A DNA stretch of 64,000 nt, taken from NCBI GenBank assembly GCA_038087875.1, contig CM075994.1:2296001-2360000 (forward strand), in the 5' to 3' direction. Position numbers and translations under genes: made by a program. This DNA comes from Malacoraja senta. Taxonomy: Eukaryota. The notes under the pieces were generated by a model. That model worked only from the letters and a program-made list of their open reading frames with translations, made no database searches and was not told where the DNA came from. How positions within the stretch are numbered: the stretch's first letter is position 1; every line of letters begins with the position of its first letter. Positions 541-43,162 of this stretch are shown in pieces.

Positions 541-1892
541 ACATGTCCCCATCTCACCAAAACGACTCTGCCTACGACAGCACTGATCAGGATGACTGGA
601 AAGAGGGAGAGAATGAAAAATGGCAAAGAGCAAACTCTAGCTCTTACCGACTGTCGATGAGCCAGGAAATGCTGAGGATGGCGAGAAGGCAGGACTATCA
701 AACAGACGTAATCACTAGGGTCACAGCTTCTTGTAGCAATGAATCAATTGATGGCAGAGCAACTTTTAGACCAAACGTAACAGCCTATCCATCCGGACTT
801 GCAACTGGACAGCAAAACATGAGGGTTAATAGACGCAGCTCTGAACCGACATTAGCTGTTGCCTTCAACCCGAGAAAGATCAACGGGCAGGAATTACTTG
901 CAAGAAGCCATGATGATTGTTCAGTAGCGTTTGACGTGGATTTCAATCAGCATCAAATGAACAAACAGGTATCTGAGGAAAGCTTTACAAGACATGTCAT
1001 TAACAACAGGTCGGGCAACTTTAATGTCAGTTCACACTCTGAGCTTTCTACTGCCTCCTCTTCAAAGGCTTCTTCAGTTTCTTCTCTGGCTAGCTCATGT
1101 TCAAACATGTCAGAGAACTCTGTTTTTATTTGCTCCCCGCTTGTTTCCCCTACTTGTTGTCAGGAGAATTATGTCTTTCCAGACCATTCAACTAAACTTC
1201 AAACTAATGCTATGCCAGACTCAAATAGTTATGTTAAAAGCACTAAAGAAAAAGCCAAGAAACCTCTAACAAAGACTTACAGCTGGGGTCCATCGAGGAC
1301 ACTTAATACAAACCAAGAATCTTTCAAGGATAACACGCTGAGAGAGAAGGTGCCGACCTGTCAGACGGTCCCTGAGGCCCAAGTTGAAGACAGTGACACT
1401 GCCAGATTCAGGACTCGCTGCATGTCTGTAGATGAAGTGTTTCAACGGGTTGACAGTAAAAAACGCCGCAGCCCCCCTTCTTATACTCAAGCTATTGAAG
1501 AAAGTTATCCATCTATTCCTTCAACGAAGCAAATGACAGTGAGAAACATGAAAAGTCAGTTGCAGCGGAAAGAACACATGAGATTTGGTGGCAAGTTAGT
1601 CGCCGGACAGAGAGACAGACCTTGTTCGTTAACAGACGAACTGCTCTATCCTTCACATGAACATCAGCTCGATCTTGATTCCTGTGATGAACAAAACACA
1701 GTTTTTTATCAGTCTGAAGCTCTGCACAATTGTTCTGAGCATGTTGTGCCTCTCACAAGACCTGAAAAAGCACAATGTTACAGAGGGAGAGCTATGTCAG
1801 AGTCTGCAGGCAGAAGCACGCATCAAATGTGGTCCACTCAAGCCTTTGTGGGCTACAAAGACTTTCAGCATGCTAAAGAGTCTTATGTGTAA
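541..1892 (+). CDS. TAGAP: TAGAP (T-cell activation RhoGAP), last coding exon; upstream exons lie outside the window
   Basis: Acceptor ctttctttacag ends at 540. The exon reads (D)MSPSHQNDSAYDSTD...NRRSSEP...KTYSWGP...FQHAKESYV-stop. The NDSAYDS, RRxSEP and AKESY[IV] motifs match vertebrate TAGAP as recalled. Adjacency to RSPH3 matches the known human 6q25.3 gene order. Confidence 0.88.
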
Positions 1893-2004
1893 CATTTGCA
1901 CAAACTATAATCTATGTTGTTAATATTCTGTTAATGCACTAGGACAACATAAAAGCTGTTATGTTCCATGATGTCTTCCGTTATAGTTGTATGTAGTCTA
2001 ATGG

Positions 2005-2010
2005 AATAAA
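2005..2010 (+). terminator. Candidate TAGAP polyadenylation signal (AATAAA)
   Basis: First AATAAA, about 110 nt after the TAA stop and just before SINE sequence begins. Confidence 0.5.
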
Positions 2011-2067
2011 ATAGAACCATTAAGTAACATTGCCTCTGAGATTTTCTGATTGGGGATTCGTATAATT

Positions 2068-2358
2068 CAGTGGTGCAGCTGTAGCTTCATGGAGCCAGAG
2101 TCCCTGGTTTAATCCTGACCTCGGATGCTGTCTATGCGGAGTTTGCACGTTCTGCCCTGACTATGTGGGTTTCCGCTGGGTATCCCGGTTTCCTCCCACA
2201 TCCCAAAGATAGGCAAGTTCTTTGGTGAATTGGCTGCTGCAGTGGATGAGAAAGTGGGATAACATACAAATAGTGCAAACGGATGATCAATGAGTCAGCG
2301 TGGACTCGGTGGATGAAAGGGCCTGTTTCCATGCTGTATCTCTAAAACTAAAACTAAC
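2068..2358 (+). mobile_element. HE1-like tRNA-derived V-SINE
   Basis: tRNA-like head, conserved core GGAGTTTGCACGTTCT...GGTTTCCTCCCACATCCCAAAGA, CR1-derived tail GGGCCTGTTTCC...CTGTATCTCTAAA. Confidence 0.75.
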
Positions 2359-2419
2359 GAGGCTATATGAGTAGAATTTAGAAATAAGAAGGGAATGATC
2401 ACATTGATGGGGTAGTTTT

Positions 2420-2702
2420 TTAGAGATACAGGTTGGAAACGGGCTCTTCAGTCCACCGAGTCCACACCAACCAGCGATCACCCTTACACTAGTTCTGTCC
2501 TACACACTCGGGACAATTTACAAAAGCCAATTAACCTACAAACCTGCATGTCTTTGGGATGTGGGTGAAAACTGGAGCACCCAGAGGAAACCCACGTGGT
2601 TAAAGGGAGAACGTGCAGACTCCACCCAGACAGCACCCATAGTCACGATCGAACCCGGATCTCAGGTGCTGCAAGGCAGCATCTCTACCGCTGCGCCACT
2701 GA
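2420..2702 (-). mobile_element. HE1-like V-SINE (minus). Further copies at ~3795-4070(-), 17355-18200(-), 29025-29330(+), 34250-34525(-), 48285-48582(+), 52335-52625(+), 55575-55860(+), 56230-56650(-), 56660-56890(+)
   Basis: Reverse complement of the same head/core/tail architecture, repeated throughout the window. Confidence 0.75.
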
Positions 2703-5134
2703 GCCACCTCCTATTGTACGATAGGTGCCTCAATAATTGGTAAGGTCATAAGTGATAGTAGAGTTTGGCCATTCGGCCCATCAAGTTAACTCTGCCATTC
2801 AATCATGGCTGATCTATCTCTCCCTCCTAACCCCATTCTCCTGCCTTCTTCCCATAACCTCTGACACCTGTACTAATCAAGAATCTATCTATCTATGCCT
2901 TAAAAATATCCACTGACGACCTCCACAGCCTTCTGTGGCAAAGAATTCCACAGATTCACCACCCTCTGACTAAAAAAATTTCTCCTCATCTTCCTAAAAA
3001 TTCCTTTAATTCTGAGGTAAGGATGCGAGCCCATGTGCTGCTCCTTCATGTCAGAAGCACACAGTAGGCAAACTCTGCCAACTATCCTTGATCGATTCCT
3101 GTGAGGAAACTTCAAGACAGTTTTGTTTTCATTTATTAATTCTTTGCGATGTGGGGATCGCAGCCAAGGCTGACACTTATTGACCATCTCTTAATTGCCC
3201 CTGAGAAGGTAATAGCGAGATGTCATCTTGAACTGTTGCCGTACCTCTGATGAAGGTACTCCCCCAGAAGTATGCAGTGGGGACTTCCAAGATTTGGACA
3301 CAGTGGTAATGAAGGATTAACAACAGTCGAGTGTCAAGAGTGTTCAATTAACATGTGCACTAGGAACGGAACAATGACATTCTGATTGGTGCATTTTTAC
3401 AGGCAACCACACAGCAAATAAATATGCAAAATTAATAATATAATAAATTATCAGTAATACTTGGTATCTAAACCATAATAATGCAGGCCGAAATTTGTAA
3501 ACAAATAGCATAGTAACAAGATGAGAGCGTGGCCAGGTTGATGAGTCTTTGATATTAGTTGTCTTTTTGATGGCTTCCTGTAGATCACTTTGGCGGTGGG
3601 GTGGTCAGTACCCGTGATGGGCTGGGCAGTGTCCACCACCACTTGCAGCCTCCTTCGTTTCTGGGTATTCAAGTTACCGAACTTTGCAACCAAACCGTGC
3701 GCTGATAGAAGTTTGATAAGAGTATTCAGCATTGTTGGTGTTGTCAGGCACTTGTTCATATTGGTGGGAGATGCCGCAAATCAGGACTGCCTTTAGACTT
3801 TAGAGATACAGCATGGAAACGGGCCCTTTGGCCATGCCGACCACTGATCACCCCGTACACAAGCACTATCCTGCACTCTAGGGACAATTTACAGAAGCCA
3901 ATTAACCGATAAACTTGTATGTCTTTGGAGTGTGGGAAGAAACCGAGCACCCAGAGAAAACCCACGTGGGTCACAGGGAGAACGTACAAACTCCATATAG
4001 ACAGCACCCGTAGTCAGGGTCGAACCCGGGTCTCTGGCGCTGTAAGTGCAATAACTCTACTGCTGTGCCAACCTTGTGCCAGAGTAATCTACATGTGTAA
4101 TGGACTGGGCTGCGCTCATGACTTTCTGCAATTTCAAGAATGTTTTATAGTGATACGTCCTGAAATAGAACAACAAAATTATTTCTTGTAGTAGCGCAAC
4201 AGATATGCAAACATAGTACTCAGTAGAGTATAAATAACAAAAAACACTACAATTAAAAAAACTATATAATACATAAACAAACCCCAAAGTCCCTAGTGCA
4301 ATCAAGGCAGTTTGTAGTTTAGTTAGAGTTCGTGGTGTTCAATAGCCTGATGGTTTTTGCGAAGAAGCTGTTCCTGAACCTGGACATTGGTTTTCAGGCT
4401 CTTGATTTTCTTTCTTACAAATTTTATGTGATGCTTCCAGATATCAAGCTCGGTCATCTCCCTTTGTGCTAGGCATTGTTCCCGCTAATTCTACTGGGCT
4501 CCTTGCTCCCACAATCAGTCAAGTGCTACCTGGAAAGCAAGAGCATTCTCAGCTCTCTCCCTCACCTGTTAAACTTGATAGTTTGGCAGATCAAGACAAA
4601 GACAGTTGGTTCAAATCAAATTTATTCTGATTTACCGATGACGGTCTTGACAACGCCACAGAAATACAACTGGCCACAATGGTGGTCTCTCAACGACTGA
4701 AGGGCAGAGCCCTGAAAACCGCGCGAAAACACGACCCCTCCCAGAGTTACATGCACGCGGATTCCGACCGCAGGGTTCGACACTTGCGAGCACCAGCAGG
4801 TGCCACTACAATAGTATTGTCAACAATTCTGGTCATTCCATTACCAGAAGGAGGTGGAGGTGTGGGAGAGGGTACAGAGGAGGTTTACCAGAATACTGTC
4901 TGGATTAGGGAGCATTAATTATTAAGTGAGGCTGCACGGACTTGAATAGTTTTCATTGGAGCGTGAGGCTTAGATAGGGTAGACAGTCAGAATTTCTTCA
5001 GGTTGGAAATGTCAGAGACTAGTGGGCATAGTTGTAAGGTGCGAGGAACAAACTTTAAGGGAGATGTGAGCTGTTTTCAACTTTAAAGGAGGACTTTGAA
5101 GGACAATGTTTGTTTGCAATCATAGATACAGTCA

Positions 5135-7921: not shown

Positions 7922-8040
7922 ATGACGAGCGTGGTAGCGCAGCAGGATGGCGGCGGTGGCGGCACCGGCAGCGGCACCTACACTTTCTCCAGCCACCCCA
8001 GGGCCCTGCAAGGGAGGAAGAAATACCGGCAGGAAGATCA
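7922..8040 (+). CDS. RSPH3: RSPH3 coding exon 1
   Basis: ATG at 7922. MTSVVAQQDGGGGGTGSGTYTFSSHPRALQGRKKYRQED resembles human STYTYTSRPRAL. Donor CA|gtgagt at 8041; 119 nt, phase 2. Confidence 0.88.
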
Positions 8041-12133: not shown

Positions 12134-15100
12134 TGTAGATTGGCTATTGCATGTTAGCCAATTAGAGTGTTTGTTAGTAGTAGCCCCGCCTAGTACATGT
12201 TAAATATATTAGGAACTCGCCTACATCAGACAGTAGATGCTGTAGCGGCAGATTTTTCTTATCTTTCGAGAAACTAATTCTCTAGCCGCTATTTGGATGA
12301 GAATGGATAAGGGGAATATCTTCGATACGCATGCAAGCTTCCTCAGAGATCTTCAGAGCTTCTTCACTCATAAAGCTTCAACACACAGTCTTTTGATGAA
12401 TAAATGCTTTATTGTTGATGGTAAACAGCAAGATACATCCAAGTTTCTTCCGACTCGTTACTGCAATCTTCCTTGAATTCCGACTTGCAACTTTAAACAT
12501 TACAAAACTCCTCGTGTCTCCCTAACATTGGCATGGTCGAAGGGTTGACCTTCTCCATCGTCTCTCCAAACTAATCTAAAAACTAAACTTCTGCGCAAGC
12601 ATCTAAGCTCCAAACATGCCCCAAAACACATCATAAATCCCACCCACAATATAACGGGCAGTCTAAAATTTAAAGGCACATGCCATCATCAGTGACATGC
12701 AAAACAGGCCAAATGGCCACTACAGATGCAGCAGCTTGAACATGTGATGTACTGCATATCCAATACTGTGGAGTTTAATAAGGATGTGCTGTACCTTACT
12801 TGTGTACGAGTCCGGTAATTACATGGTGTCAGAGAAGTGAGCTGGACCCTGTTTACCGCGATTTATTTCTTTTATCAGTTTTATTTTTTCATTTTTTCCC
12901 CGTCATGGCCAACTCCTGCCGCAAACCTATTGATCTTTGATTCAGACATCGCCGAGCGATGGCCTATCTTTGAACGTGACTATGCTCATTATATTCGCAT
13001 TGCTCATCGTAATGATCCTGATGATTTAAAGGCATCGCTACTGCTCAATCTAGCGGGTCCAGAGGCAATAAATCACGCAGACAACTTTGAATTTGCTCCT
13101 ACCATTCAAGATGCTAATGGCCAGGTCCTAGTGCCTGCCGATATCATCGACAACCCAACAGTTCTGCTCAGAAAATTCAGAGAGCTGTGTGACCTGCCCT
13201 CGAATTGCATACTAGAAAGAACAAAGTTCTTTGCCCGTCAGCAACAAGTCGATGAACCTGTCGAACAATTCATCAGTGATTTATGACACATGGCTACACG
13301 CTGTCGTTTTGGTGAGTTGACGAATGAACTTGTGAGAGATAAGATTGTGGGGGGTATAATCGATCACAAACTGAGGGCTGAGCTCCTTCGCAACCCAGAA
13401 TTGACTTTGGATCAAGCTATCCATTCATGTCGTATGTCAGAAGTCGTTTCCCCACTTGCAGACTCTGCGACTCTCAGCCCACGACAGCAGCATAACGTTA
13501 ATCTTGCTAATTATTCTCCCCGCAAAAGCTCAAATGTGCCTCGCAAAAGCCCAAACGTGCCTCGCAAAAGCCCAAATATACCTGCTGTGCGATGTCAGAA
13601 CTGCAATTATTTCCACTTGAGGGGGCGCCAGTTTTGTATAGCTTAAGGTAAAACCTGCCATCACTGTAAGAAGCTTCATCATTTTGCGATGTGCTGCCGT
13701 TCCCTTGAGAACAGCGCTTCAAGGACAAACCTGCACCTGTTGCAACAAGAGCTCTCAGACTCTGACTCCCTAGAGCTCGACAATGACTCCCACGAGAACA
13801 ACTCTGAAAATGCTGACTGCAACTCTGCGATCCACTCCCTCCTACGATCCTCTGGCAAACTGCTCGACCCTGAAGTGACCATGTTCATAAACAACAGGCC
13901 CCTGACAGCCAAGGTAGATACGGGGGCAAAAGTCAACATTATGTCGTTAAGGGAGTTTAACAAAATCCGGAACGCCGAACGAATGCAAAAGGACTCCTCC
14001 ACGCTTCATGCTTACGGGGGGTGTGGTTCTGTATCCACTTGGAAAAGCTGATTTAAAGTGCACGATAGATAACCAGACAAAAAACCTGCTGTTTTACATT
14101 GTGCAGTCAAATTCCGAGACCCTGCTTGGTATAAATGCATGTCATGACCTGGGCCTGGTGTATTTTGGACGTGCCGTCCACAAACTATGTCTATCAGAAG
14201 AGCCAGCACAGCAACTACTATCCCAGTACAAAGACCTGTTTGATGATGGACTTGGCAAGTTGCCCGCAACGTATAGGATCGCTGTGGATCCTACAGTCAC
14301 ACCTGTGGTCCGTGCACCACATCGCGTTCCCCATGCCGTGCGGGAAAGAATACACAATGAACTCAAACGCATGGTCTCCATTGGAGTAATTGCTGAAGTT
14401 AACGACCCGCCTGATTGGGTTTCCACCATGGTCATGGCGACTAATAAAAACAAAGACGAGATATGCATCTGCATCAACCCCAGGAACCTGAATACTGCAA
14501 TCAAGCGCCCTCACTACCTGATGAGAACAGAGGACGTCGCTGTGCAGATTGGAAACGCAGCAGTGTTCTCAGTCTTGGATGCTAAAAGCTCTTTCTGGCA
14601 AATACCACTAGATCCTGCATCATCCAACCTAACGACTTTTGCCACACCATTTGGCCGCTACAAATTTTTAAGGATGCCCTTCGGCATCAACTCTGCCAGC
14701 GAAGTCTTTCAACGTGCAATGGAACAAATGTTTGCAGAATATCCGTGCGCCATCATTGTTGACGATATCCTTGTCTATGGTCGTGATTTGGCTGAGCATG
14801 ACGCCAACCTGAAGAAAATACTAAACTGTGCCAGAGACATCAACCTCAAACTTAATCCACTTAAGTGCAGATTTCGGGTTCCGGTGGTCACCTACGTCAG
14901 ACATGTTTTTACCAGCAACGGCCTGAAGCCCGATCCGCTGAAGACTGCAGCCATAAACGAACTGTCTGTTCCTACCGATGTCACCATTTTGAAACGATTC
15001 CTCGGTATGGTGAACTACCTGGGCAAATTTATTCCCAACCTCAGCGACCTGTCGGCCCCCCTGCGCCAACTGACACATAAAGACACGGCGTGGTCCTGGT

Positions 15101-16085
15101 ACCCGCACCACCAACTGGTTTTTGACACTCTCAAACTTCAATTAGCGTGCGCGCCAACACTGTCGTATTTTGACCTCAAATTACCGGTCACCATCACATG
15201 CGATGCATCCCAGTATCTCGCCAGATGCATCCACCCTTGCTTGTCTCCCAGCAACAGCTGCAGCCGCGCGTCCGCTCCCCGCCCGCGGTGCAGAAGCAAC
15301 TGCAATTTAAACGCGACACACAAAAGCGTTTTTACGACAAGTCCAGCAAGCCGCTTAAACCACTGTCACGTGGACAAGTGGTTCGCCTGCAAACCGACAA
15401 AGGACATACCCGACTGGGGCACATTTATGGCCCTTCCAAAGAACCACGTTCCTACCTGGTCGATGTGGACTGTGTCATCTACAGACGCAACCGTCAACAT
15501 ATCCTTCTAGTGAAGGAACCACGTCCTGCGCCTACAGATCCTGATGCTCCGCCTCTCGTGTTTGCACAAACGCCTGCTCCAGCTACCCTACCAGCTACTC
15601 CACCACCTGTTGTAACTGCTGCCGCGTGTTCCCCGCATCGGTTTACCCCTGGCTCGCCTGTGGCGATTTCTCCCACCAGGCCCGCCGGGTCGCCGGTCAT
15701 GTCCCTACTCCCGGTTTCCATTTCTTCTCCCGCAAAGGAGGGTGAGGCGGTCTCCTACCGCACGAGGGCCGGACGGGTTTGCAGGCCACCCATCAGATAC
15801 GGTGATTTTGTATATTCTTGCTACATTCCCTCAGTATATTGTTTAAGATACCGTGGTTGCTTTTCATCTTCTACAAGAAGAGATGTAGATTGGCTATTGC
15901 ATGTTAGCCAATTAGAGTGTTTGTCAGTAGTAGCCCCGCCTAGTACATGTTTTATAATATTAGGAACTCGCCTACATCAGACAGTAGATGCAGCAACTTG
16001 AACATGTAATGTACTGCATATCCAATACTGTGGAGTTTAATAAAGATGTGCTGTACCTTAATTGTGTACGAGTCCGGTAATTACA
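12134..16085 (+). mobile_element. Gypsy (Mag-like) LTR retrotransposon, defective
   Basis: LTRs TG...CA at 12134-12823 (interrupted) and 15884-16085 (202 bp). PBS TGGTGTCAG at 12824 (tRNA-Leu-like); PPT before 15884; flanks GATGT/GATGG. Gag zinc knuckles, protease VDTGA, RT LDAKSSFWQI and IIVDD, C-terminal RTRAGRVCRPP. Stops and frameshifts present. Confidence 0.92.
12241..12724. mobile_element. Solo LTR of a different family nested in the 5' LTR
   Basis: 484 bp with short inverted termini TGTAGCGGC...GCCACTACA. Perfect 5-bp TSD GATGC (12236-12240, 12725-12729). Absent from the 3' LTR. Confidence 0.8.
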
Positions 16086-29353: not shown

Positions 29354-29557
29354 CTCTTTGACTTTGACATTGAAGTGAAACCAATGCTGGAAGTGCTGGT
29401 GGGGAAAACCATTGAGCAAGCTCTGTTGGAGGTTTTGGAGGAGGAGGAACTGGCGAATCTGCGTGCTCTCCAACGTGACTTTGAGGAAATTCGCAATGCA
29501 GAGCTTGCAGAAGTTCAGCGCATGGAAGAGAGGGAGAGACGTTACCGAGAAGAAAAG
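29354..29557 (+). CDS. RSPH3: RSPH3 coding exon 5 (AKAP-like amphipathic helix and coiled coil)
   Basis: Acceptor ctctttttttcag. LFDFDIEVKPMLEVLVGKTIEQALLEVLEEEELANLRALQRDFEEIRNAELAEVQRMEERERRYREEK. Donor gtattg; 204 nt. Confidence 0.96.
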
Positions 29558-30239
29558 GTATTGCTCACTCCAGTCGAAACTCATAGAGAGAATGCATATC
29601 CTGTCACTGTTGATCAAAGCATGCCGATGATTTGGAAATTAAATATGTTTGTAGTTAACCGGTAAGGTTTTTAAGTTGGGATGTTGTTAACACTACTAGT
29701 CTGAGTTGATGTGGACCAATGATTGATTGGCAAAAGGTGACTGAAAAATCAATTAAGAGGGAGAAAATGGAAAATCAGTACAAACTACAAGCAGACAAGA
29801 TTTACGAGAATGTTGCTAGGACTCGAGAGTCTGAGCTATAGGTAGAGGTTGAGCAGGCTAGGACTGTTCCTTGGTACGCAGGAGGATGTGGGGTGATCTT
29901 AAAGAGGTATACAAAATCATGAGAGGAATAGATTGGGTAGACGCACTGAGTCTCTTGCCCCGAGTAGTGGAATCGAGAACCAGAGGACATAGGTTTAAGG
30001 TGAGAGGAAAAGATTTACTAGAAACCTGAGGGGTAACCTTTTTATACAGAGCGTGGTGGGTGTATGAAACAAGCTAGTTGCAGCAGGGACTATCGCGACG
30101 TTTAAGATAGGTACATGGATAGGATAGGTTTAGAGGAATACGTGCAAAATGCAGGCAAGTGGGACATGTTGGTCGGTGTTGGCAAGTTGGGCCAAAGGCC
30201 TGTTTCCACGCTGTATGACTCTATGACTATCAAGGGATA

Positions 30240-32381
30240 TGAAATATGGGGGCAGGGGGGTTGGTTATTGGGGCGGGAGGGTTGTGGGGAGGGGGTTTGT
30301 GGGGGTTGTGGGGGAAGGGGTGGTTGTGGGGGAGGGGGGATTGTGGGGGCGGCGGGGTGTGTCGGGGGGGGTGTCAGGAGAAGGGGGGTTGCGGGGGTGG
30401 GGGTCAGTGTGGGGGTGTGTGTGGGGTGGTCTGTGAGGAGGGGGGTGTGTGGGGGGATGTGTGTGGAGGGTGTGTAGGGGATGTGTGTGGGGGGGGGGTG
30501 TGGGGGGTGTGTGTGTGCGCACGGGGGAGTGAGGGCGGGGGGATGTTTGGGCAGGGGGACTTGTGGGCGGGAGGGGTGTGTGGACGGGTGGGGTGTGTGG
30601 ACGGGAGGGGTTGAGAGGGTGTGTGGGCAGGGGGGAGTGAGCTCGGAGAAAAGAGGGGTTAGAGAGGGGGGCATCACGTGGGAGGGGGGGAGGAGCCAGC
30701 GAGGGAGACCAGAGGGGTAGTGGCTGGAATTGGCGGTGCGATGGGGACTCACAGCGGGCGTTGGTCGCTGGTCGTTCTCCTTTGCTGGGATCAGAGTTTC
30801 CGCTTTCCGTTTGGCGACATCTCTGACTCCGGGCTGGGCTGGGCCTCCGATTCTGGGCTGGGTTGGGTCTCCGACGCTGGGCTGCTGCTTGGGCGGGGCT
30901 GCTTCGGGTCCCTCCGAAAGTCCGGTTGGAAACCTCCACCTCAGCTCCACTAAAGATGCGATGGCACAGGAAGGGGCGGACCATCCGGGGAGTGACAGGG
31001 GAGGAGACTAATCCGCGTGGCGCTGGAAGGCAGGAGAAGAGATCAATCTGCGCACGCACGGTTTTCAAGATTTTTAAACCTCGCTAACTTTTACGACATT
31101 CAACCAATCGGAACAAAACTTGGTGCAATCGCAGCATAGGAGATCGGTGAGTGAACTGGCGAATAATCGTAGCGCTATCATGAACCGTTTTTGCGCAAAT
31201 AGGGTGACCGCCAAACCGGAAGATAACAAAAACGGTATGCGATAGAGCTACGATTTTTCGCCAGCTTACTCACCGTTCTCCTGTGCTGCGAGTGCAACAA
31301 GTTTCATTCCGATCGATGGTATATTGTAAAAATTATTACGTTTAAAAAATATATATTTTAACGCGCACGCGCAGATTGCTGTCAGTCGCCGCCATGCAGA
31401 TTGGTCTCCTCTCGTGTCAGTCAGGAAGGGGCGTCGCCAGTACCATCATTGCACTGATTGACCGTGTCCGCTGTCAATCGACTGGATGAAGTCGGGGCGT
31501 GGACTGGAGCGGCGGGGCGGGGCGGGGCGTGGAGCCCAGGCGGCGGCCGAGCTGAGGGGTGGAGTCGTGCCCAAGCCCAGGGCCTGGGTCAAGGTGTACC
31601 AGCGCCTCAGGGGCCACCCGGCCTCCACCATCCTGTAGCACAGCCTCCGCTTCCTGATCTGCGGGCAGCTCACCCCGCCCCCAGCATAGCGAGCCCGGCT
31701 CCGTTGAGGCCCAGGTCCGCATGTGATTCGGCCAGGGCCGGGCCGGGTCGAGTACGAGAACCAGGCCGAGTTCCACGCCCTGGCGCTGTTCAATTACCTG
31801 GGTAGGTGCTGGGGCAGGGAATGGGAGTGAGGGGAGATGAGCGAAATGGGGAGGAGGGAGATGGGGTGGTAGAGGGAGATGGTGGGGGGGCGGTGGGCAG
31901 CGCCGAGCCCCACTGTCTACGCGCTGGTGAGGGACACTGCGGGTCCAGGGAAGGGCAGCGCTCCAGCGACTCCTGTCCGCGGGCACGGACTCCAGGAGCG
32001 GCCCTAACGCACCGCACCATTACAGAGAGAGGGAGCGCCGCAGCCCGGACCACAGCACGGGGGGGGGGGGAGAGAAGATGGAGGGAGGGGGGGATGGAGA
32101 GGATAGAGAGGGATGAGGGAGGAAGGGGAGGGAGGAAGGGAGGGAGTAAGGGGGGAGAGAGGGAGGTAGTGGGGTAGAGGGGTGGTGGAGTACACGGGGG
32201 TAGGGAGGGGGGTAGAAGTGGTCCAGGGTGATGGGCAAGGTGGGATAGAGGGGGGTGTAGAGGCAGAGGGGAACAGGGAGGAGTGGATTTCATGGGAAGT
32301 GGGATAGGCGTGAGTGGTGGTATATTGCGTTGGGGAACCAGGCCTCCCATGTGATGACCCAATGGGTCCCACTTAGTCTGG
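30240..32381. mobile_element. Composite non-autonomous Helitron: two modules fused head-to-head near 31228, with the 3' terminus at right
   Basis: 3' hairpin GACCC-AAT-GGGTC followed by CCACTTAGTCTGG|T (CTRR ending 32381). Internal module homologous to 36145-36620, on - at ~30690-31228 and on + at ~31228-31430. Left boundary uncertain. Confidence 0.7.
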
Positions 32382-33070
32382 TGTGACAATAAATGTGAAC
32401 TTGAACTTGAAACCTTTGAAATTGAAGTAGGAGAAATAGTAATTTGGTATAAGGGACTGGTGGCAGATGACACTAACAATCATCTTCTGAACTAATCCCT
32501 TGGTGTCAAAGATAAGCTATTTTCATGTGATGAGGCCAACGTGGGAACAAACTGCCACAACTGGCAGGAGATTTCTGATGGAGTTGTGATATGTGAGGCA
32601 GTGTGGTTCTTTTATCGTTTTCACTGGACTTCCAAATGTGCTCGGCAAGAAAGACGAGGTGCACAGCGCTTCTCAGCTTTTCTTCTCCATTTTGATAACT
32701 CGCAGCCAGGGATTCATTTGAGTAGGTGAGATTTAAATATTTTCAAGGAATTTTGCTCTTCCTTTTATCTGAGTATGTGTGTGAGGTACATGTCCCGCTG
32801 GTGGTCTGTATATGATGAGGGTTCAACTTGATGCTGAAAATGTTAAAGCAATCCTACTGCACAAGACTGACTACTCTGCATTTAATAAGTAACTACTGTC
32901 TGTATATCACGCACTGATATGGCCATATCAGGGAATTATGATGTAAATCTGTGCCCCAGTATTGTGAGATCACCTTGCTCTCAGCGTTATGCCACTAAAC
33001 TTCACAAAATATTTGTAAAAATTCAGATAACCCTGACAAATATCATTCCCTTTATTTCCCACATTCAGTG

Positions 33071-33558
33071 CAGGTTCGGAAAACCATTGATTTTCCGGCA
33101 TCTGATGGTCCGGCACCTCCTGTAATCCACACAAAATTACAAAATCTCACCCCTGGAAGTCCCCCCTCACCAGGATTTTGCGCCTAGACTGGGTGAGTGG
33201 GCTGATCTTGGCCTCACTGGAATGTCCGGGCGGGAACTGTGGCCTTGCTGGAGCCGGCCGATCCGTTCAGTTGCCAACTTCTGTGGCTGAACTTCCGATT
33301 TGCGAGTCAAATTTGCCCCCTGCGGCCGAGGGCCCTGGAACTCCGGCACAGTCGGAACAGACAGATCTGTTCCCATAGCCAACTTCTGAGGCCGACTTTG
33401 TGGCTGGTATCTTGCCCCCCCCCCCCCCGTCTGCCTAGGCGGATCGTTCCAGTAGCGTTCGACTCCTCTCGGAAGCTGTGATCTCTGTTGGTCTGGCAGA
33501 ACGGATAATCCGGCTAAACTCTGGAACTAAGGGTGCCTTAAAATCGGTGGTGGACTTG
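33071..33558. mobile_element. Tc1/mariner(pogo)-like MITE
   Basis: Decayed TIRs (CAGGT..ACCA..GATTTTCCGG / ...AAATCGGTGGTGGACTTG). A related copy in opposite orientation lies at 49074-49577. Confidence 0.6.
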
Positions 33559-33596
33559 CATTAGAGTTTTCACTTTCACATTGTTGTATTTTACAG

Positions 33597-33759
33597 AAAC
33601 ATCGTATGATACAACAACAAGAAGTGTTGAACAAAGAGAAAGAAACTGCAGATAAGATTGCAGCACGCGCATTTGCCCAGAATTACCTGGCTGATCTAAT
33701 CCCCATAGTCTTCAGTACGCTTCGGGATAATGGTTACTTCTACGACCCAGTGGAGAGAG
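33597..33759 (+). CDS. RSPH3: RSPH3 coding exon 6
   Basis: Acceptor tattttacag. KHRMIQQQEVLNKEKETADKIAARAFAQNYLADLIPIVFSTLRDNGYFYDPVER. Donor G|gtttgt; 163 nt. Confidence 0.95.
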
Positions 33760-34964
33760 GTTTGTCCTTGATTTATTTTGCAATTATACAAAGCTTTACA
33801 ATAACACGGTTGAAATTGATTTAGGCTGTGCATTAGTTTTCCCTTTGGTCTATCCCCTTACTCCTCGGGCACCCATTCTCTCAGCATCTTGACTTGTCCC
33901 ACTGCTCTAATGTTTAATTTATTATTGTCACATGTAAAGAGGCACAGTGAAAAACTTTTGTTTGGGTGCTGTCCAGTCAAAGAAAAGACTATACATGATC
34001 ACAATCAAGCCATCAGAATACTGTAAATGTGAATGCAAATTCACCTGCAAATGTTCAGTTCAGAAATCAGGAGAATGATCAATCTTTTATTCTCTCTGAA
34101 TAAAATATTGAGAGAATGCTTTATATTTTTCTCTCTCAATATATAAAAATAAAAGGATATACACCCTGAGGGATTATCTGCATTCTTAAAACTGAAATAT
34201 CCTTCATGTACCACTCTTCCTCCTGATCATTTATGCATTTTATTTTAGACATTTTATAGATATAGTGTGGAAATAGGCCCTTCAGCCCACTCTGTCAGGA
34301 CCGACCAGCACTAGCACTATCCTACATACTAGGAGCAATTTACAATTTTAGAGAAGCCAATTAAACTTCTTTGGTATGTGGGAGGAAACTAGAGCACCAG
34401 GAGGAAATCCACGTGGTCACAGTAAACAACGTACAAACTCCGAACAGACGGCACCCGAGGTCAAGATCGAATCCGGGTCTCTAGCGCTGTAAGCCAGCTA
34501 CTCTCCCGCTGCGCCATTGTGCCTCCCCAATTTTTGACAGTGATATTTTTGATTTGCATTCATTAGTGAATTATGATGTCCTTCACACACGTGGGAGAAA
34601 AGGATGGATGTGCAGCATTTAATGCCCTAAGACTAAAAGTGGTACAAAAACGTGTGCCACTTCCAATCTTTCACCTCTTGCATCTCATAAGACAGTGTAA
34701 TGCTGACACTTTGATAGAAAGCTCATCTAAAATTTTACCTAGGTTGAAAGTACACAAATTTCAAATAATTACTTTAGTTGTGTCTTCTAAGATTTTTTTT
34801 TAAGTTACTAAATATTTTCTTAATCTCCAAGGTTTGTTTCTGTACCTCCTAGCATGCTGTACATAACTGTTCATTTTTACTGACCTGTAGAGCTTCTGCG
34901 AGTAAGAATTTAATTGTTCTGTTTTGGGACACATGACAATAAAACACTCTTGGCTCTTTATTAG

Positions 34965-35051
34965 ATGTGGAGAATGTGTTCCTGCCTTGGCTGATGGGAG
35001 AGGTAAAGAAATCGATAGAGAAGAAAATTTTGGGAAGGACAATGTTGGACA
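34965..35051 (+). CDS. RSPH3: RSPH3 coding exon 7
   Basis: Acceptor ctctttattag. (D)VENVFLPWLMGEVKKSIEKKILGRTMLD resembles human DIEIGFLPWLMNEV...GRTVLD. Donor A|gtaagt; 87 nt. Confidence 0.93.
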
Positions 35052-36122
35052 GTAAGTACCTGGTCTTTAACAATTCTGTTTAGTTACGGTACCATGTAAA
35101 ATTTGCCATAGGATAAATGTGATTTTTAAAAAAGCAGCTCAGAGATCAGTGAGTGAGACATAGATTTCTCTGCATGGGGCATCCAAAATTGGCAAAAAGG
35201 GGAGCTGTTGCATTTGTTTGGGCTTCCCTTGAGTCGGGCTGGGACCAGTGCCCTAGCAAATTAAATAACTAGAGCCGTGGATGTATTTAAACTAAGTTGA
35301 TAGATTTTTCTGTTTGGATATTTAGAACATTGAAGAGAAAGAACAAACAATAGTGCAAAATGAGTAATAAAAACTCAGCGGGACCCGCGTCTTTGGGAAA
35401 GAGCGTCAAAGGGTACAGAGAGAGAGAGAGAGAGAGGCAGGAGAATGGGTAGGAAGGAACTGCAGATGCTTATTTACACCGAAGATGAACACAAAATGAT
35501 GGAGTAACTCAGCGGGTCAGGCAGCACCTCTAGAAGAAAAGAATAGGTCAGAACCACACTCTAGTTGGTAATAGGATGGTTCAGTTGCCTGATAACAGCT
35601 GGGAAGAAACTGTCCCTGAATCTGGAGGTGTGCATTTTAAGAAAGGAGGGAGATGACGTGGGAAACATTCGACCTATTAACATTTCTTCGGTAGTAGAGA
35701 AATGTTAACATCCGTCATGAAGGAAATGCCAGTTTGAAGTAATAATATAATTGAGCAGTATAAACATTAGCTTTTTTTGAGATTGTAACCTCCAGAAAAT
35801 GTAAGGATGTGCCATCATAGAGTTGTAGGGCATAGGACCACCACATCCATACATGTACACTAATCCATTCACCTGTGTGACGTCCATAGCTTTCCAAGCT
35901 GTGGTGATTCAAGTACTTATCTAGATGATTCTAAATGTTGTGGGAGTATCTGCCTCCACTTCAGGCAGCACTTTCCAGACTCCAGCCACCCTCTGTGTTC
36001 AAAACAAAATCCTTTGCAGATCGCCTCTCTGCCTCCTACCTCTCAGTTTAAACCCATGCCCTCTCTGACATTCCCACCATGGGGAAAAAGCTAATTGCTT
36101 TATACTCTATGCATTGTCCTCA

Positions 36123-37268
36123 TCTATACATAACTAAAGCTCTGATCTTGTGCTCTTCCGCTTTGTGCGGTTTTTCTATTTCTACGGTACGCGATAGTGC
36201 TACGATTTTTCGCCAACTCACCATTCTCCTGTGCTGCGAGTACAACAAGTTTTGTTCCGATCTGTGGTATATTGTAAAAAGCGAGGTTTAAAAAGCGTAA
36301 GAACCGTGCATGCGCAGATCGATCTCCTCTCCTGCCAGTCAGCAGCGCGCGGATTAGTCTCTTCTCCTGTCACTCCCTGGGACGGTCCGCCCCTTCCTGC
36401 ACCATCGCGCCTTTACTGCAGCTGAGGGAGGCCGGCAGAGGTCCCAACCGGACAGAATTTTCGGAGGGACCGGAAACGGCGCGGCGATGTCTCCAAACGG
36501 AAAGCGGTGAATCTGATCCCAGCGGAGGAGAGAGTCCAGCACCCGCTGTGTCCCAAACGCACCGCCATCGCATACGCCCCGCAGCTCCAGCCCCTTTTCC
36601 TCTGGTCCCCCTCGCTGGCTCCTGCCCCATTCCCCATGATACCCTCCTCTCCCCCATGGCTCTTCCCCCGTCTTGTCTCCGAGCTCTCCCTCCCTCCCCA
36701 CACCCCACACGCCGTAGCTGCTGGTGCTTCTGGGCCGATCTGAGGCCTGGCTCTAAGGGCGCCGATGGCTGATACTCCACCGGGGCACGCAAGAAGGGAG
36801 AGGAGTGGAAACCTCGAGATCCTAGGGCGGGAGAGTTGGGGAGGAGAGGGGATAGAGGGAGGAGAGGAGGGGAGTAGGGAGGGGAGAGGAGTGTAATGGA
36901 GGGAGGGAGGGAGTGACGGGGTAGGGGAAAGGAGAGGTGAGGGAGGGATTGGGGGAGGGTAGGAGGAGAGGGACAAGATGATGGAGGTGATGAGGGAGAG
37001 TGGGGGAGGAGGGGGAATTGAGGGGGAGTGGGGGAGGTGGGAGATAGGGGGATAGGAGGGGGTAGGGAGGAGAGAGATGGAGGGAGGGATGGGGGGGGGT
37101 GGAGGGGGGGAAAGAAGAGGGAGGGTGAAGAGGAGGGGGAGAGAGTGCTAGGGATGAGGGGAAATGAGCTGCGCTTGTGCAGTTGGGACTATGGGTGAGT
37201 GGTGGAATATTGCGTTGGGGGACCAAGCCTCCTGTGTGACAGGGACCCAACGGGTCCCACTTAGTCTA
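36123..37268 (+). mobile_element. Non-autonomous Helitron
   Basis: 5' end A|TCTATACATAACTAAAGCTCTGATCTTG. 3' hairpin GGGACCC-AAC-GGGTCCC followed by ACTTAGTCTA|T. Inserted at an A|T within a CR1 remnant (cctca|taaatg) without a TSD. Confidence 0.78.
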
Positions 37269-38588
37269 TAAATGTAGAAATCTCTATTGGATCATCCCAC
37301 GGCCTCCTATGCTCCAGGGGAAACAAATTCAGCCTATCTAATCTCTCTTTATAATTGTAATGCTCCAAGCCAGGTTTGTATCCTTGTGAATCTCCTCTGC
37401 ATCCTATCGAGATTCTTACCAAATAATGAAAGGCCTGGATAGAATTGGTGTGGAGAGGATGTTTCCACTAATGCGAGAGTCTAAGACCAGAGGGCACAGC
37501 CTCAGAATAAAAGGACCTACTTTTAGAAGGGAGATGAGGAGAAATGTATTTAGCCAAGGTGAATCTGTGGAATTCATTGTTACAAATGGCTGTGGAGGCC
37601 AAGTCTTTGGGTAAGAGTGTCAAAGGTTAAAGGCAGGAGAATGGGTAGGAAGATGGACACAAAATGTTGGAGTAACTCAGCGGGTCAGGCAGTATCTCTG
37701 GAGGAAAGGAATAGGTGACATTTCGGGGCACGAAACAGGAGAATGGGGTTGGGATGGTAAGAGTGATCAGCCATGATTGAATGGTGGAATAGACTCAATG
37801 GGCTGAATGGCCTAATTCTGCTCATATGACTTGGGAGCTTATGAACTCTCCAGGCCAAGTGACCTGAACATTGCAAGTTGTGCGGTGTGACCAGAACTGC
37901 TCAAAATAGACAATAGACAATAGGTGCAGGAGTAGGCCATTCGGCCCTTCAAGCCAGCACTGCCATTCAATGTGATCATGGCTGATCATCCCCAATCAGT
38001 ACCCCGTTCCTGCCTTCTCCCCATATCCCCTGACTCCGCTATTTTTAAGAGCCCAATCTAGCTCTCTCTTGAAAGCATCCAGAGAACTCGCCTCCACTGC
38101 CCTCTGAGGCAGAGAATTCCACAGACTCACCATCTCTGTGAGAAAAAGTGTTTCCTCGTCTCCGTTCTAAATGGCTTACTCCTTATTCTTAAATTGTGGC
38201 CCCTGGTTCTGGACTCCCCCAACATCGGGAACATGTTTCCTGCCTCTAGCGTGTCCAAACCCTTAACAATCTTATATGTTTCAATGAGATACCCTCTCAT
38301 CCTTCTAAACTCCAGCGTGTACAAGCCCAGCTGCTCCATTCTCTCAGCATATGACAGTCCCGCCATCCCGGGAATTAACCTTGTACAAAAATACAACTTT
38401 TTTAAATTAAAATGATAACATGACATTCCAGCTCATATTCTATGCCACTTCCAATGAAGGCATGTCACCTTCACCAGCTTATCACCCCTGATGCCACTGT
38501 CCCTCTGTCCATTGGCCCTACCATTATGTCCTACCCTTGTTTGCCCTACCATTTCTCAGGTTTAAATTCAATTTGCCATTGTTCCACC

Positions 38589-41500
38589 TGTAAAGAGGAG
38601 TCATAACACGCTGTGTCTTTACTACTGTTTATTCATGATACATATACTTTACTGCCCTAACTGTTCGTGGTCTGTCACCGGAACCAGAGAGAGAGAGCAC
38701 TGGGTGGGAAGGTTGTAATTATACTAGTGATGTGGGGAGTGGTTAGTAGTGGTGAGGTCACTATGTTAAAGGTACATGCACATGTCATCTACATCCTTCC
38801 CCTTGGAAATAAAAAAGCAATACCGTAGTGACAGGGCGACCACGTCTCATACGCTACGAGCAAGTGAGCAAATAGTTAAGCAAAATCACCATAACGGACA
38901 GGCGGCCTGACCACCCGCCCGGACCGGGTATGCAGCTCGCCATCTCCCCCCTCTGCAGGAGGAACATGAGTAGGAGCAGGCGCGGGTGAGAGAACCAGGG
39001 AATCGGGAGGAGAAAGAGAAAACGGAGACGGAGCAGGGGAAGCAGGAGCAGTAGCGGGAAGACGGGCAGGCGAGGGAGGACTGGCTGGAGGGGCAGGCAA
39101 CGTGGCAGACAGCGGGGGGGAAAAGGGGTCTGCAGGCGGCGGTGGGGGCTCGTTAACAAGCCGCAGATGTTGGCGGGACCGGCGGTAAATAGTATCGTCA
39201 TGGTCGACTAGATAGGACCGCGGCGAACCAGCAGTACCGACGACGATGGCAAGCCTGGGGTGACCGGAGGGGGACTGCATCCGGACGACTTGGCCAGGGA
39301 ACAGAGGCTGGAGGGGACGGCAGGACTTGTCGTGGGAGCGCTTTTGGATTTCTTGTTTGAGGGCAATGCGCTCCTGGACAGCAGCGGGCTGGAGAACAGA
39401 GGGAACGAGGGACCACTGGGTCACTGGGATCGGAGGTCTCGTAGTGCGAGACATCAGCCGTTGTGCTGGGGAGCCCAAGGCAGTGTCGCGGCAAATGTTT
39501 CGAAGGTTGAGGAGGGCCAGGTAAAAGTCAGAATGGGACAGTCTACAATGTTCCAGCAAGTCCTTAGCACTGCGGACAGCGCGCTCTGCCAAGCCGTTGC
39601 TTGAGGGTACTCTGGGCTGCTGGTATAGTGTCGGAAGTTCCAGCGGGCAGCGAAACTCCGAAATTCGGCACTCGAGAACTGGTTGCCGTTGTCCGATTGA
39701 AGACTTGCCGGGGTGCCAAAGGTTCCGAAGTGGCGGCGCAGCCTCCCGATAACGGCCGAAGAGGTGAGGGAGTGCAGCTGGTCAACCTCGAACCAGCTGG
39801 AGTACGAGTCCACAAGAACCAGGAAATGCTTGCCACGCCACTCGGGGGCAGGCTGTTGCAGAAGCGGCTGCCATTGCTGATTGGGAGCGAGGCTATTGCA
39901 GACAGAGCAAGCGGAGACCCTCTCCCGGATGTCTTGGGCCATGCTGGGCCAGTAGAACAAACTCTGGGCCTGAGACAGGGTGGCCTCAGCTCCAGGATGA
40001 CCGCAGCAGGCACAATGACTTTGTGTCCCTTCACGACCACGCCGTCGTGCAGCACGAGCTCGTCACGGACCAGGAAGTAGGGCACGACTCCAGGCGGCAA
40101 GGATGAACGACGGTCTGGCCAGCCCTGCCTGATGACGTCGGCAAGCTGCTGCAGGGCAGGATCCTTGGCAGTGTTGCTGACCAGGGACTGCATCTGCTGG
40201 GAAGGCACAATGTTGACGTTAAGCACCATCAGGTCAGACGATTCATATGGATGGCGATCGGTGGACGTTAGAGGTGCGCGGGACAGCGTGTTGGCCACGG
40301 ACATGTCCTTGCCCTTGCGATATACAATTTTGAACGTAAAACGCTGGAGCTGCAGCATCATGCGCTGCAAACGGGACGAGGCAACGTGGATCGGCTTGTT
40401 GAGGATAGAGACCTGCGGCTGATGGTCGGTCTCGATCGTGAAGCTGTTGCCCAGAATATAGTCCTTGAACTTGGAGCAGGCAAGCACCACAGCAAGCAGC
40501 TCCTTCTCTATCTGAGCATAGCGCTGCTCGGCAGGGGTTATGGTGCGGGACGCGTAGGAAACAGGCAGCTGCAGGCCATCATGGAGCTGCAGGCAAGCAG
40601 CACCAAGACCGAACTTGGAGGCGTCGCAGGTAAGAACAATGGGACGCTGCAGATCGAAGAATTGGAGAGTGGGGGTACTGGCCAGCCTGGACTTCAGAAC
40701 GTCAAAAGCTTTCTGGTGATGTGGGAACCAGGCCCAGGCAGTGTCCTTCTTGATCAACTCCCTCAGGGGCGCGCTCAGCTCGCTGAGGTCGGGGATGAAC
40801 TTCCCCAAGTAATTAACCATGCCCAGGAAACGCTGCAGGCTGGGCACGTCGGTGGGCGAAGACATCCCGGAGACCGCAGCCGTCTTCTGCGGGTCAGGCT
40901 TCAGCCCCGATGCAGTAAAGACGTGGCCCACATAGGTGACCTCCGGGACGCGGAAACGGCACTTCTTTGGGTTTAGTTTGAGGTTGATTTCACGGGCCCG
41001 GTCCAGGACTTGACGGAGGTGGAGATCGTGCTCAGCAACGTCCTTACCGTAGACCAGGATGTCGTCAACGATGATGGCACACGGCAGACTGGTGAACAGC
41101 TGCTCCATCGTCCGCTGGAAGACCTCGCTGGCAGAGTTGATCCCGAATGGCATGCGGAGGAATTGGAACCTGCCGAAGGGCGTGCTGAAGGTAGTCAGGT
41201 AGGAGGACTGCTCGTCCAGCGGTATGTGCCAGAAGGAGCTCTTGGCATCGAGAACCGAGAAGACAGTGGCCGGGCAAACCTGTACAGCAACGTCCTCCAC
41301 TGTTCGCATGGGGTAATGAGGGCGTCTGATGGCAAGGTTCAGGTCTTTGGGGTTGATGCAGATGCGAATTTCACTTTTGTCCTTTTTCGCAGCAACAACC
41401 ATGGTTGAGACCCACCGGGTGGGTTCGCTCACCTCCTTCAGGATGCCCATGGTAACCATGTTGAGCAGCGTTAACTCCACCTTGTCCTTCATGGCGAAGA

Positions 41501-43162
41501 AGACGCGGTGTGGTGGACGGATCATAGGTTCAACACCGAGGTCGACAACGATCTTGTAGCTGCAGGGCAGCTTGCCCAGCTTGTCGTCAAAACGGTCAGG
41601 GTATTCGCGCAGGGGGTCCATAAGGGTCCGCACCTGGTGGATATTACGGTGGAAAGAGACCAAGCCGAGGTCCTGGCACGCCCGGGCACCCAACAGGGTG
41701 ATGTTGTTAGTATCCAGTAGATAAAAAGTGAGGGGCCGAGAGGCATGCAGTACCTTGCAGTGCAGGGTAGCCCTCCCCACCGGAACGAGCACGCTTCCCC
41801 CGTAGGCATGCAACAGGGAGTTATCGGGAGTAACTTTCTCATCAGTCCTTATCTTCTTGAAGAGGCTTATTGACATTACATTGGTCACGGCCCCCGTGTC
41901 GAGTTTGGTGGTGAAGGTCGAGCCGTTGACAGTAACGCGAACCGAAGGGTCCGTTATCAGTGCAGGTGCATCCAACACCGAAAATATGCTGGTCTCCCCC
42001 TGGGAGGAACTTGTATCAGACAAAGGGAGCTCATCAGGCTGGAACTGTGAACCAAGCGCGCTATCAGCTCGAGCAAGGTTGTTTAACATTCGGCGAGGAG
42101 CAGGAATTGGCTTCCCACGGGAGCGACAGGCTGCAGAGAAATGGTTCAATTTCCTGCAAAAGTTGCACGTTTTTCCCAGTGCAGGGCACACATTAGACTG
42201 ATGGGAGGTAAAGTTGCAGTTGGGGCACCGCTGTGGGCTGCTACTCCCGGGTGCAGGGGACCACCGTTGCCATTGCGGGCCAGCGTTCCGCCGGCGGCCA
42301 GCAACACTGGCAAAGTTAATGTCATGATCAGCAGACGACACCGCCGAGGCGACAGCCTCAGCCATGCGGGAGGCATGCAGAGCCTCGGCTAAAGACAGGT
42401 CGTGCTTCCGCAGAAGTTCAGCCCTTAGTTTTTCATCTTGAAGACCATACACTAAAATGTCCCGGGTCAGTTGATCGGGGGTCAGTGTGTCCAGGCTGCA
42501 ACGCCTGGCCAGGTGACGCAACGCGGCGATATAGTTATCGATTGACTCTCCAGAGATCTGACGCCGGGTGAACATTTTAAAACGCTCTAGAATGCAGTTA
42601 GTGGGGATGTCGCACATTGCGGTAAACTTAGCCATAAGACATACCGGGACCCGAGCATCTTCACCTGCACCATAGACAAACGACTCAGCCCGTTCCAGGG
42701 CATCGGGACCAGCCAGGTTGAGAAGCAGAGAAGCCCGTGTGGCCGGGGTGGCAGCAGGATGGGCGATCGTGACGTAGTGTTGGAAGTCACATCTAAAGAC
42801 ACCCCACCGATGGGCAATGACCGAGTCGAAGACAAGCATATCGGGTTTACGGCAAGAAGTAGCCATGGCACGGGAGATAAAAAAACACAATGGGGAAACG
42901 GGTGAAAGGAAAGAAAACCCGATAAACTGGAGGCGCAAAGGTACGATGCTGACACCATGTAAAGAGGAGTCATAACACACTGTGTCTTTACTACTGTTTA
43001 TTCATGATACACATACTTTACTGCCCTAGCTGTTCGTGGTCTGTCACCAGAACCAGAGAGAGAGAGCACTGGGTGGGAAGGTTGTAATTATACTAGTGAT
43101 GTGGGGAGTGGTTAGTAGTGGTGAGGTCACTATGTTAAAGGTACATGCACATGTCATCTACA
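38589..43162 (-). mobile_element. Gypsy (Mag-like) LTR retrotransposon, near full length
   Basis: 205-bp LTRs (38589-38793, 42958-43162) with 4 transitions between them. Perfect TSD CCACC; PBS TGGTGTCAG; PPT AAGGGGAAGGA. Open gag-protease(LDTGA)-RT(IIVDD)-RNaseH(CDAS, YAQIEKE, TDH) frame; integrase frameshifted. Confidence 0.95.

Follow-up and report, generated by a model that had tools for sequence, protein, structure and literature searches.

Introduction

Helitrons are known to capture pieces of host genes in bats, Xenopus and teleosts. In Myotis bats, HelibatN3 has captured NUBPL, whose promoter, first exon and a portion of its first intron were multiplied to about a thousand copies; captures were described in the same paper as biased to the 5' ends of genes (PMC4224331). 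In Xenopus laevis, the non-autonomous Heli1Xen1 Helitrons carry fragments of coding sequence, 17/19 of which come from 5' gene ends (PMC12001565). Bat Helitrons are recognised by a 5'-TC start, a CTRR-3' end, a palindrome 11 nt from that end, and insertion between A and T without duplication (PMC4778049).

A case from cartilaginous fishes would represent a new lineage for this process. The literature searched, in which subscription papers are thinly covered, held no report of Helitron gene capture in chondrichthyans, nothing that combines skate genomes with Helitrons, and no mention of a capture of SAC3D1; judged by title, the elasmobranch and rolling-circle literature was likewise without a skate case. 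The word 'Helitron' is absent from the main text of three elasmobranch genome papers (PMC10115646, PMC9605692 and 10.1101/2025.06.08.657570), and supplements, Dfam or Repbase may already hold the family described here.

We analysed a window of 64,000 nt from the skate Malacoraja senta (assembly GCA_038087875.1, contig CM075994.1, positions 2,296,001 to 2,360,000, forward strand). An earlier reading of the letters alone (the sequence-only reading) had proposed that a decayed host exon, ending at a donor-like motif, lies within a Helitron-like element, and had left the parent gene unnamed. This proposal is now borne out by a parent protein, by homology that ends at the GT, and by many copies. 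We consider it likely that a broken piece of SAC3D1, present in many copies, was taken up as DNA, splice donor included, by a Helitron of the non-autonomous kind, spread by rolling-circle transposition, and is a non-functional passenger.

Results and Discussion

Position of the tract within an RSPH3 intron

Seven exons of RSPH3 were located in the window: near 7955, 10560, 18960 and 26260, the two given in Table 1, and near 34965. Intron 5 is 4,039 nt long and holds the SAC3D1-like tract in sense orientation, as had been proposed; this placement rests on the positions of the exons and on the PF06098 match of exon 5. Further upstream, a 483-aa open frame on the plus strand (441-1892) resembles the final exon of the host gene directly upstream of RSPH3, which may be TAGAP, judged by synteny. 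The window also contains two related LTR-retrotransposon-like elements, at 38876-43001 (minus strand) and 12819-16001 (plus strand), which are 70% alike over 725 nt and one of which has a 1,145-aa frame. Presumably, these are Ty3/gypsy elements.

Table 1. Features of the RSPH3 intron 5 region and of the related element nearby (window coordinates; a slash within a motif marks the junction).
Feature	Position	Strand	Remarks
RSPH3 exon 5	29354..29557	+	Pfam PF06098, E 1.5e-29 on 29357-29557; phase-0 donor next; exon order and phase
Candidate 5' end of composite element, A/TC	30230..30231	+	Weak, two bases only; A/TC at 30229/30230, directly after the tail of a dispersed repeat
G-rich low-complexity filler	30245..30641		
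Inverted copy of family body	30618..31229	-	Matches sister copy at 76% (341 nt) and 70% (232 nt)
Internal inverted repeat	31070..31350		124-nt arms, 78% complementary
Forward body, very high copy	31232..31430	+	88% over 101 nt against sister copy
Decayed SAC3D1 fragment	31485..31801	+	DEVGAWTGA; AQAAAE insert remnant, then SAC3-domain stretch QRL...LG
Donor-like GTAGGT	31802..31807	+	End of SAC3D1 homology, phase 1; candidate host intron start
Post-donor sequence, multi-copy	31808..32055	+	Host intron or element filler
Family 3' end	32300..32381	+	Shortened hairpin 32356-32368, CTGG 32378-32381, then T
RSPH3 exon 6	33597..33759	+	Phase-0 acceptor
Sister copy without SAC3D1 piece	36123..37268	+	A/TC start at 36122/36123, same body, 7-bp hairpin 37242-37258

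The parent gene is SAC3D1

The codon-like tract was confirmed together with its two stops (TAG at 31636-38 and TGA at 31724-26), two frame breaks and the boundary G/GTAGGT at 31801/31802. Its extent had been given as 31570..31807; codon-like sequence is indeed found there, but this range is too short, as homology starts from about 31485. In the phasing proposed earlier, GC3 was 0.97 for 31570-31683, 0.82 for 31685-31735 and 0.94 for 31747-31800. The observed GC3-GC2 was reached in 0/20,000 shuffles for 31570-31683 and likewise in 0/20,000 for 31747-31800, which upholds the claim of strongly G/C-ending codons for these two outer pieces; the middle piece taken alone was not significant (1,815/20,000 shuffles reached the observed value). 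A CAG/G at 31537-31540 was considered as a true acceptor and rejected, because it lies within aligned coding sequence (Gln-Ala) and is preceded by only 5 pyrimidines in 15 bases.

A protein search, which the sequence-only reading had named as a check, found the parent. An exhaustive phmmer search of the tract, with X at the stops, against 1.84 billion proteins gave three hits. One of these (P0004) is a SAC3D1-like protein of the skate Rhinoraja longicauda, matched colinearly over query residues 19-88 with 62% identity (E 1.6e-6), and it contains a SAC3_GANP domain (PF03399, E 4.7e-69). The other two, P0002 and P0003, are repetitive proteins with only short matches and were rejected as parents. 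The parent was missed by Pfam (no match for four readings of the tract), among PDB sequences, and by a word-indexed search for homologues in longer proteins, where all 59 candidates had E above 1.

A follow-up homologue search returned 11 SAC3D1 proteins. Frameshift-aware alignment to the tract gave the highest scores with two skates (221 and 215). Four other rays reached 77-121, three sharks 53-77 and two caecilians 42-46. A trimmed pair scored 196 against a shuffle mean of 37 and a maximum of 50 (30 shuffles). The end region was reached in 10/11 alignments, nine of which stop exactly at 31803; the alignment of Amblyraja stops at 31788, where this protein has LD instead of LG, and the one that does not reach the end region is a Mobula isoform. 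A tblastn search of the window gave no match for the protein residues that follow LG. The insert remnant DEVGAWTGA is identical at 9/9 residues in Amblyraja and Leucoraja and at 6/9 in Rhinoraja, and the repeat insert that holds it is found in skate proteins only, being absent from the nine non-skate proteins aligned. These alignments identify the tract at 31485-31801 as part of skate SAC3D1 in a decayed state. As the match is to a host gene, the tract is not ordinary transposon coding sequence.

Full-length SAC3D1 proteins are present in the three named skates and in other elasmobranchs. In three gap-free segments, the tract shares 17-18/23, 15-16/17 and 14-16/21 residues with the proteins of Rhinoraja (XP_078280094.1), Amblyraja (XP_032902980.1) and Leucoraja (XP_055514366.1). 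Unlike these proteins, it amounts to about a quarter of the full length, contains stops and frame breaks, and has lost the conserved DRLRSVRQD motif; because of this damage and this short length, it cannot encode a SAC3 domain. The skate proteins themselves (P0004-P0007 and P0017-P0020) contain a lineage-specific tandem repeat insert within the SAC3 domain, and repeat number is the sole difference between RefSeq isoform models. Rhinoraja has two SAC3D1-like models, one of them on a 6.6-kb contig. Human SAC3D1 is among the SAC3-type partners of PCID2 (10.64898/2026.04.13.716336).

Damage within the tract

Compared with the skate proteins, the SAC3D1 fragment is interrupted by two stops, breaks frame twice and has lost sequence in three deletions. 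Before QRL, 14-16 codons are missing, those of DRLRSVRQD included, a deletion that was overlooked in the repair proposed earlier. The first frame break had been ascribed to one extra C, whereas the alignment gives a deletion of about 23 nt at LWLGRPPP. A break is also found at the second position, LLAVYS, which had been explained by a 5-nt duplication (GGCCG); with or without this duplication, 6-7 codons are lost there, which had escaped notice. Both stops had been read as C>T changes. The TAG stands opposite a host Glu, though other copies mostly have CAG there (7,800/8,213). The TGA stands opposite a host Cys and derives from TGC, the codon of most other copies (974/995 depth in contig set X1). 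The residues LTPP of the proposed peptide are off-frame and are replaced by SPRP in the aligned reading. That peptide was thus right in part only, because the deletions and stops read differently against the skate proteins.

The carrier element resembles a Helitron

A sister copy without the SAC3D1 piece lies 5 kb away, and the two copies share the body and the last ~80 bases. The studied copy ends in CTGG/T (32378-32382), that is, in CTRR followed by a host T, whereas the sister copy ends in CTA and then T, one purine short of CTRR. The sister copy has an intact hairpin with a 7-bp stem ending 11 nt before CTAT (z -2.15, 6/200 shuffles). The hairpin of the studied copy stands at the same distance and is cut to 5 bp, which is not significant (z 0.14, 96/200 shuffles). 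The window has just two instances of the 3' end motif, and 100 shuffles produced none. At the candidate ends of the studied copy, the flanks are A on the left and T on the right, with no duplication.

In its left half, the studied copy has an inverted body in head-to-head fusion with the forward body, which makes its 5' end uncertain; this inverted body lacks the TC start of the family. A dispersed repeat (29792-30234) that matches several other places in the window flanks the candidate 5' end. The fusion at 30618-31430 forms a 280-nt imperfect palindrome, and most copies in three contig sets have the 5' layout of the sister copy rather than this fusion. The sister copy has a distinct interior stretch of its own at 36716-36830 on the minus strand, which is coding-like (FLRAPVEYQPSAPLEPGLRSAQKHQQLR) and may be a second captured fragment; searches of the ESM Atlas with two family stretches outside the tract, one of them 36716-36830, gave no usable hit.

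The carrier is likely a Helitron, short of proof because the 5' end of the studied copy is rearranged. The termini of both window copies are imperfect, which would also fit a carrier of another kind, such as a different non-autonomous element, or amplification by tandem or segmental duplication. Against this stand the A/TC start of the sister copy with its hairpin 11 nt from the end, and the lack of a terminal inverted repeat joining the two ends of the studied copy, where the sole pairing (30157-30172 with 32359-32374) begins inside the flanking repeat. Rfam had no match over 30000-37500, and scans of metagenome and viral contigs, collections unlikely to hold skate DNA, gave 0 matches, those for the Helitron end motif included.

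The SAC3D1 piece is a repeat family in three organisms

A search of sequencing runs returned 23 runs from 8 organisms, 20/23 of which contained a small share of the words searched; RNA runs were absent among the runs listed as holders. Three contig sets, from three organisms, and one RNA run were mapped onto 31230-32055 at 80% likeness. Single-copy depth was assumed to equal the median depth of the long contigs listed, 8 for each run (27.9, 18.6 and 23.7). Relative to a single contig, summed depth was 80-255, 53-217 and 32-103 times over 31538-31733 (the long form), 1,680-3,248, 785-1,871 and 844-1,600 times over 31734-31817 (the last ~80 bases), and about 14-59 times over 31902-32041; these figures are rough and are not copy numbers, as short overlapping contigs inflate them. 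We therefore read them as tens to hundreds of copies of the long form and hundreds to thousands of the last ~80 bases. In the top bin of the element body, where the same caveat applies, summed depth reached 219,000-624,000, or 11,500-22,400 times that of a single contig. As a floor on the number of copies, 27-46 distinct contigs deviate from the window at 31636, and 91-102 do so at 31776. The SAC3D1 piece is a repeat family in all three organisms: the dispersed copies that the sequence-only reading had expected are numerous, with 3/3 contig sets far above single-contig depth.

Many contigs (62, 50 and 70 in the three sets) share the sequence GGCCGAGCTGACGGCTG(C/G)AGTCTACAGCCA upstream of 31740, which fuses a stretch coding for AAEL to AVYSQ, the latter missing in the window copy. 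This join defines a short and far more abundant deletion form. Among the 40 differences from the window that are shown, with 274 further ones recorded, 15 lie inside the tract and touch 14 codons. Two of these codons have silent differences and, by majority letter, 12 have a changed residue: 7 to the residue of both skate hosts, 2 to that of Rhinoraja only and 3 to neither. As the majority letters mostly restore host residues, the family as a whole is nearer to the gene, and the window copy is one of its diverged members. X1 record 8 is identical to the window over 31861-32055, and the X1 organism may thus carry this very copy. The exon end is connected to 31808..32055 by X1 record 5 and X2 records 22 and 23.

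These contigs also bear on amplification by means other than a Helitron. In its favour, none of the contigs listed spans the body, the tract and the 3' end, the bin 31510-31537 has zero coverage in the mapping, and copy depth varies about ten-fold along the tract. However, body and tract are joined by one contig in each set (31418>31587, 31440>31578 and 31485>31589, with short sides of 22-44 nt), so that the joint is found in three organisms with a different gap in each. We consider amplification of the piece by non-Helitron means, or by a carrier that is no Helitron, unlikely.

Probable capture as DNA in the skate lineage

Since the piece carries a skate-only insert, and alignment scores decrease from skates to other rays to sharks, we infer that the capture took place within the skate lineage. 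A non-autonomous skate Helitron would have acquired the terminal part of a SAC3D1 exon, splice donor included, at the DNA level. The probable route is either read-through past the 3' end of the Helitron or copying of the repair type into the element, two options that the evidence does not separate. Bypass of the 3' end has been demonstrated for Helraiser (PMC4778049) and is a plausible route here. Derivatives would then have been copied in trans by rolling-circle transposition, and deletion derivatives amplified separately, the long form to tens or hundreds and the short form to hundreds or thousands of copies. The studied copy would be an old copy of the long form that has undergone rearrangement.

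The GTAGGT at 31802 is likely the start of a host intron, and we treat it as a candidate for the first intron of the gene on three grounds: the end point of the homology, the gene model of the Mobula isoform, which drops 43 residues across the LG point and so fits an intron in that span, and the two-exon structure of human SAC3D1. After LG, the bases GGT AG could instead mark the start of Gly-Ser codons. Read in that way, the piece may be a truncated retrocopy made through RNA, with the GT a chance breakpoint; retrocopies within Helitrons have been reported in bats (PMC4224331). However, the piece has nothing from downstream of LG, and the tract is not followed by a poly(A) run. Retrocopies usually retain the 3' end. 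That the homology stops at a good donor, and that the Mobula model is, if indirectly, consistent with an intron at this point, also argue against a retrocopy, which we regard as very improbable compared with capture as DNA.

The donor and transcripts

With the tract in sense orientation and its GT intact, RSPH3 might use the studied copy as a cryptic exon, or copies at other sites might yield chimeric transcripts that matter; a few RNA reads lie on the tract in organism H. Fifteen cryptic exons ending at 31801 were joined between RSPH3 exons 5 and 6, and 14/15 YAG acceptors upstream of the donor led to a premature stop, the single exception being a 66-nt exon with a mediocre acceptor. No joint at 31801 was listed in RNA run X23, which has 109 reads in both directions and continuous depth across the donor, within 6% of a run from another organism, with exon 6 outside the mapped stretch and with 8 joints and the repeat rows dropped, which makes this a weak test of splicing. 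The X23 reads lie mostly on the element body.

Also in favour of donor use is P0021, a Logan protein from a 1,029-nt contig in an Amblyraja cluster, which joins an element-type start to the remainder of SAC3D1: it has the element-type deletion with GHP and LQH, followed by full host SAC3D1. Its switch to host-type residues falls where both forms are alike, as in an assembly chimera, which is the more likely origin of this join than a real transcript. Short predicted proteins resembling the start of P0021 were looked for and no candidate was found. As P0021 carries the same deletion, it independently confirms this deletion as a trait of the family. We hold use of the donor, in RSPH3 or elsewhere, to be extremely unlikely, and the SAC3D1-derived tract is probably without function.

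On a broader reading, which is also very improbable, a skate-wide Helitron family may have carried the end of a SAC3D1 exon, together with a working donor, to thousands of sites, with some copies spliced or recombined into transcripts, including those of SAC3D1 itself, as in P0021. If true, the family would be a mobile exon-end that reshapes skate transcripts.

Comparison with known Helitron captures

Capture of SAC3D1 as DNA by a skate Helitron would extend vertebrate Helitron gene capture to cartilaginous fishes. The nested deletion subfamilies common to several organisms would allow rolling-circle activity to be dated and might serve as presence/absence markers in skate phylogeny. The assembly, annotation and RNA quantification of SAC3D1 can also be confused by the many near-copies of part of the gene, an artefact of which P0021 may be an example.

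In the sister copy, the hairpin stands 11 nt from the 3' end, as it does in Helraiser (PMC4778049). Like HelibatN3, the skate element would be non-autonomous and carry a piece of a 5' exon, possibly with part of the next intron. HelibatN3 has a promoter and a 5' UTR and gives rise to chimeric transcripts (PMC4224331), whereas the skate piece begins mid-exon, has lost the start of the gene, contains nested deletions, and has no spliced product among the data seen here. With Heli1Xen1 it would share the form of non-autonomous vertebrate Helitrons that carry fragments of coding sequence; Heli1Xen1 has 64 insertions overall, 17 of them for armc5 (PMC12001565), whereas the skate fragment reaches at least tens to hundreds in several organisms. 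The texim genes of teleosts are likewise a case of a Helitron-mobilised gene in a fish lineage. However, texim are reported to be expressed hydrolase genes (PMC4021074), whereas the case in skates, which are cartilaginous fishes, concerns a host gene reduced to a broken fragment.
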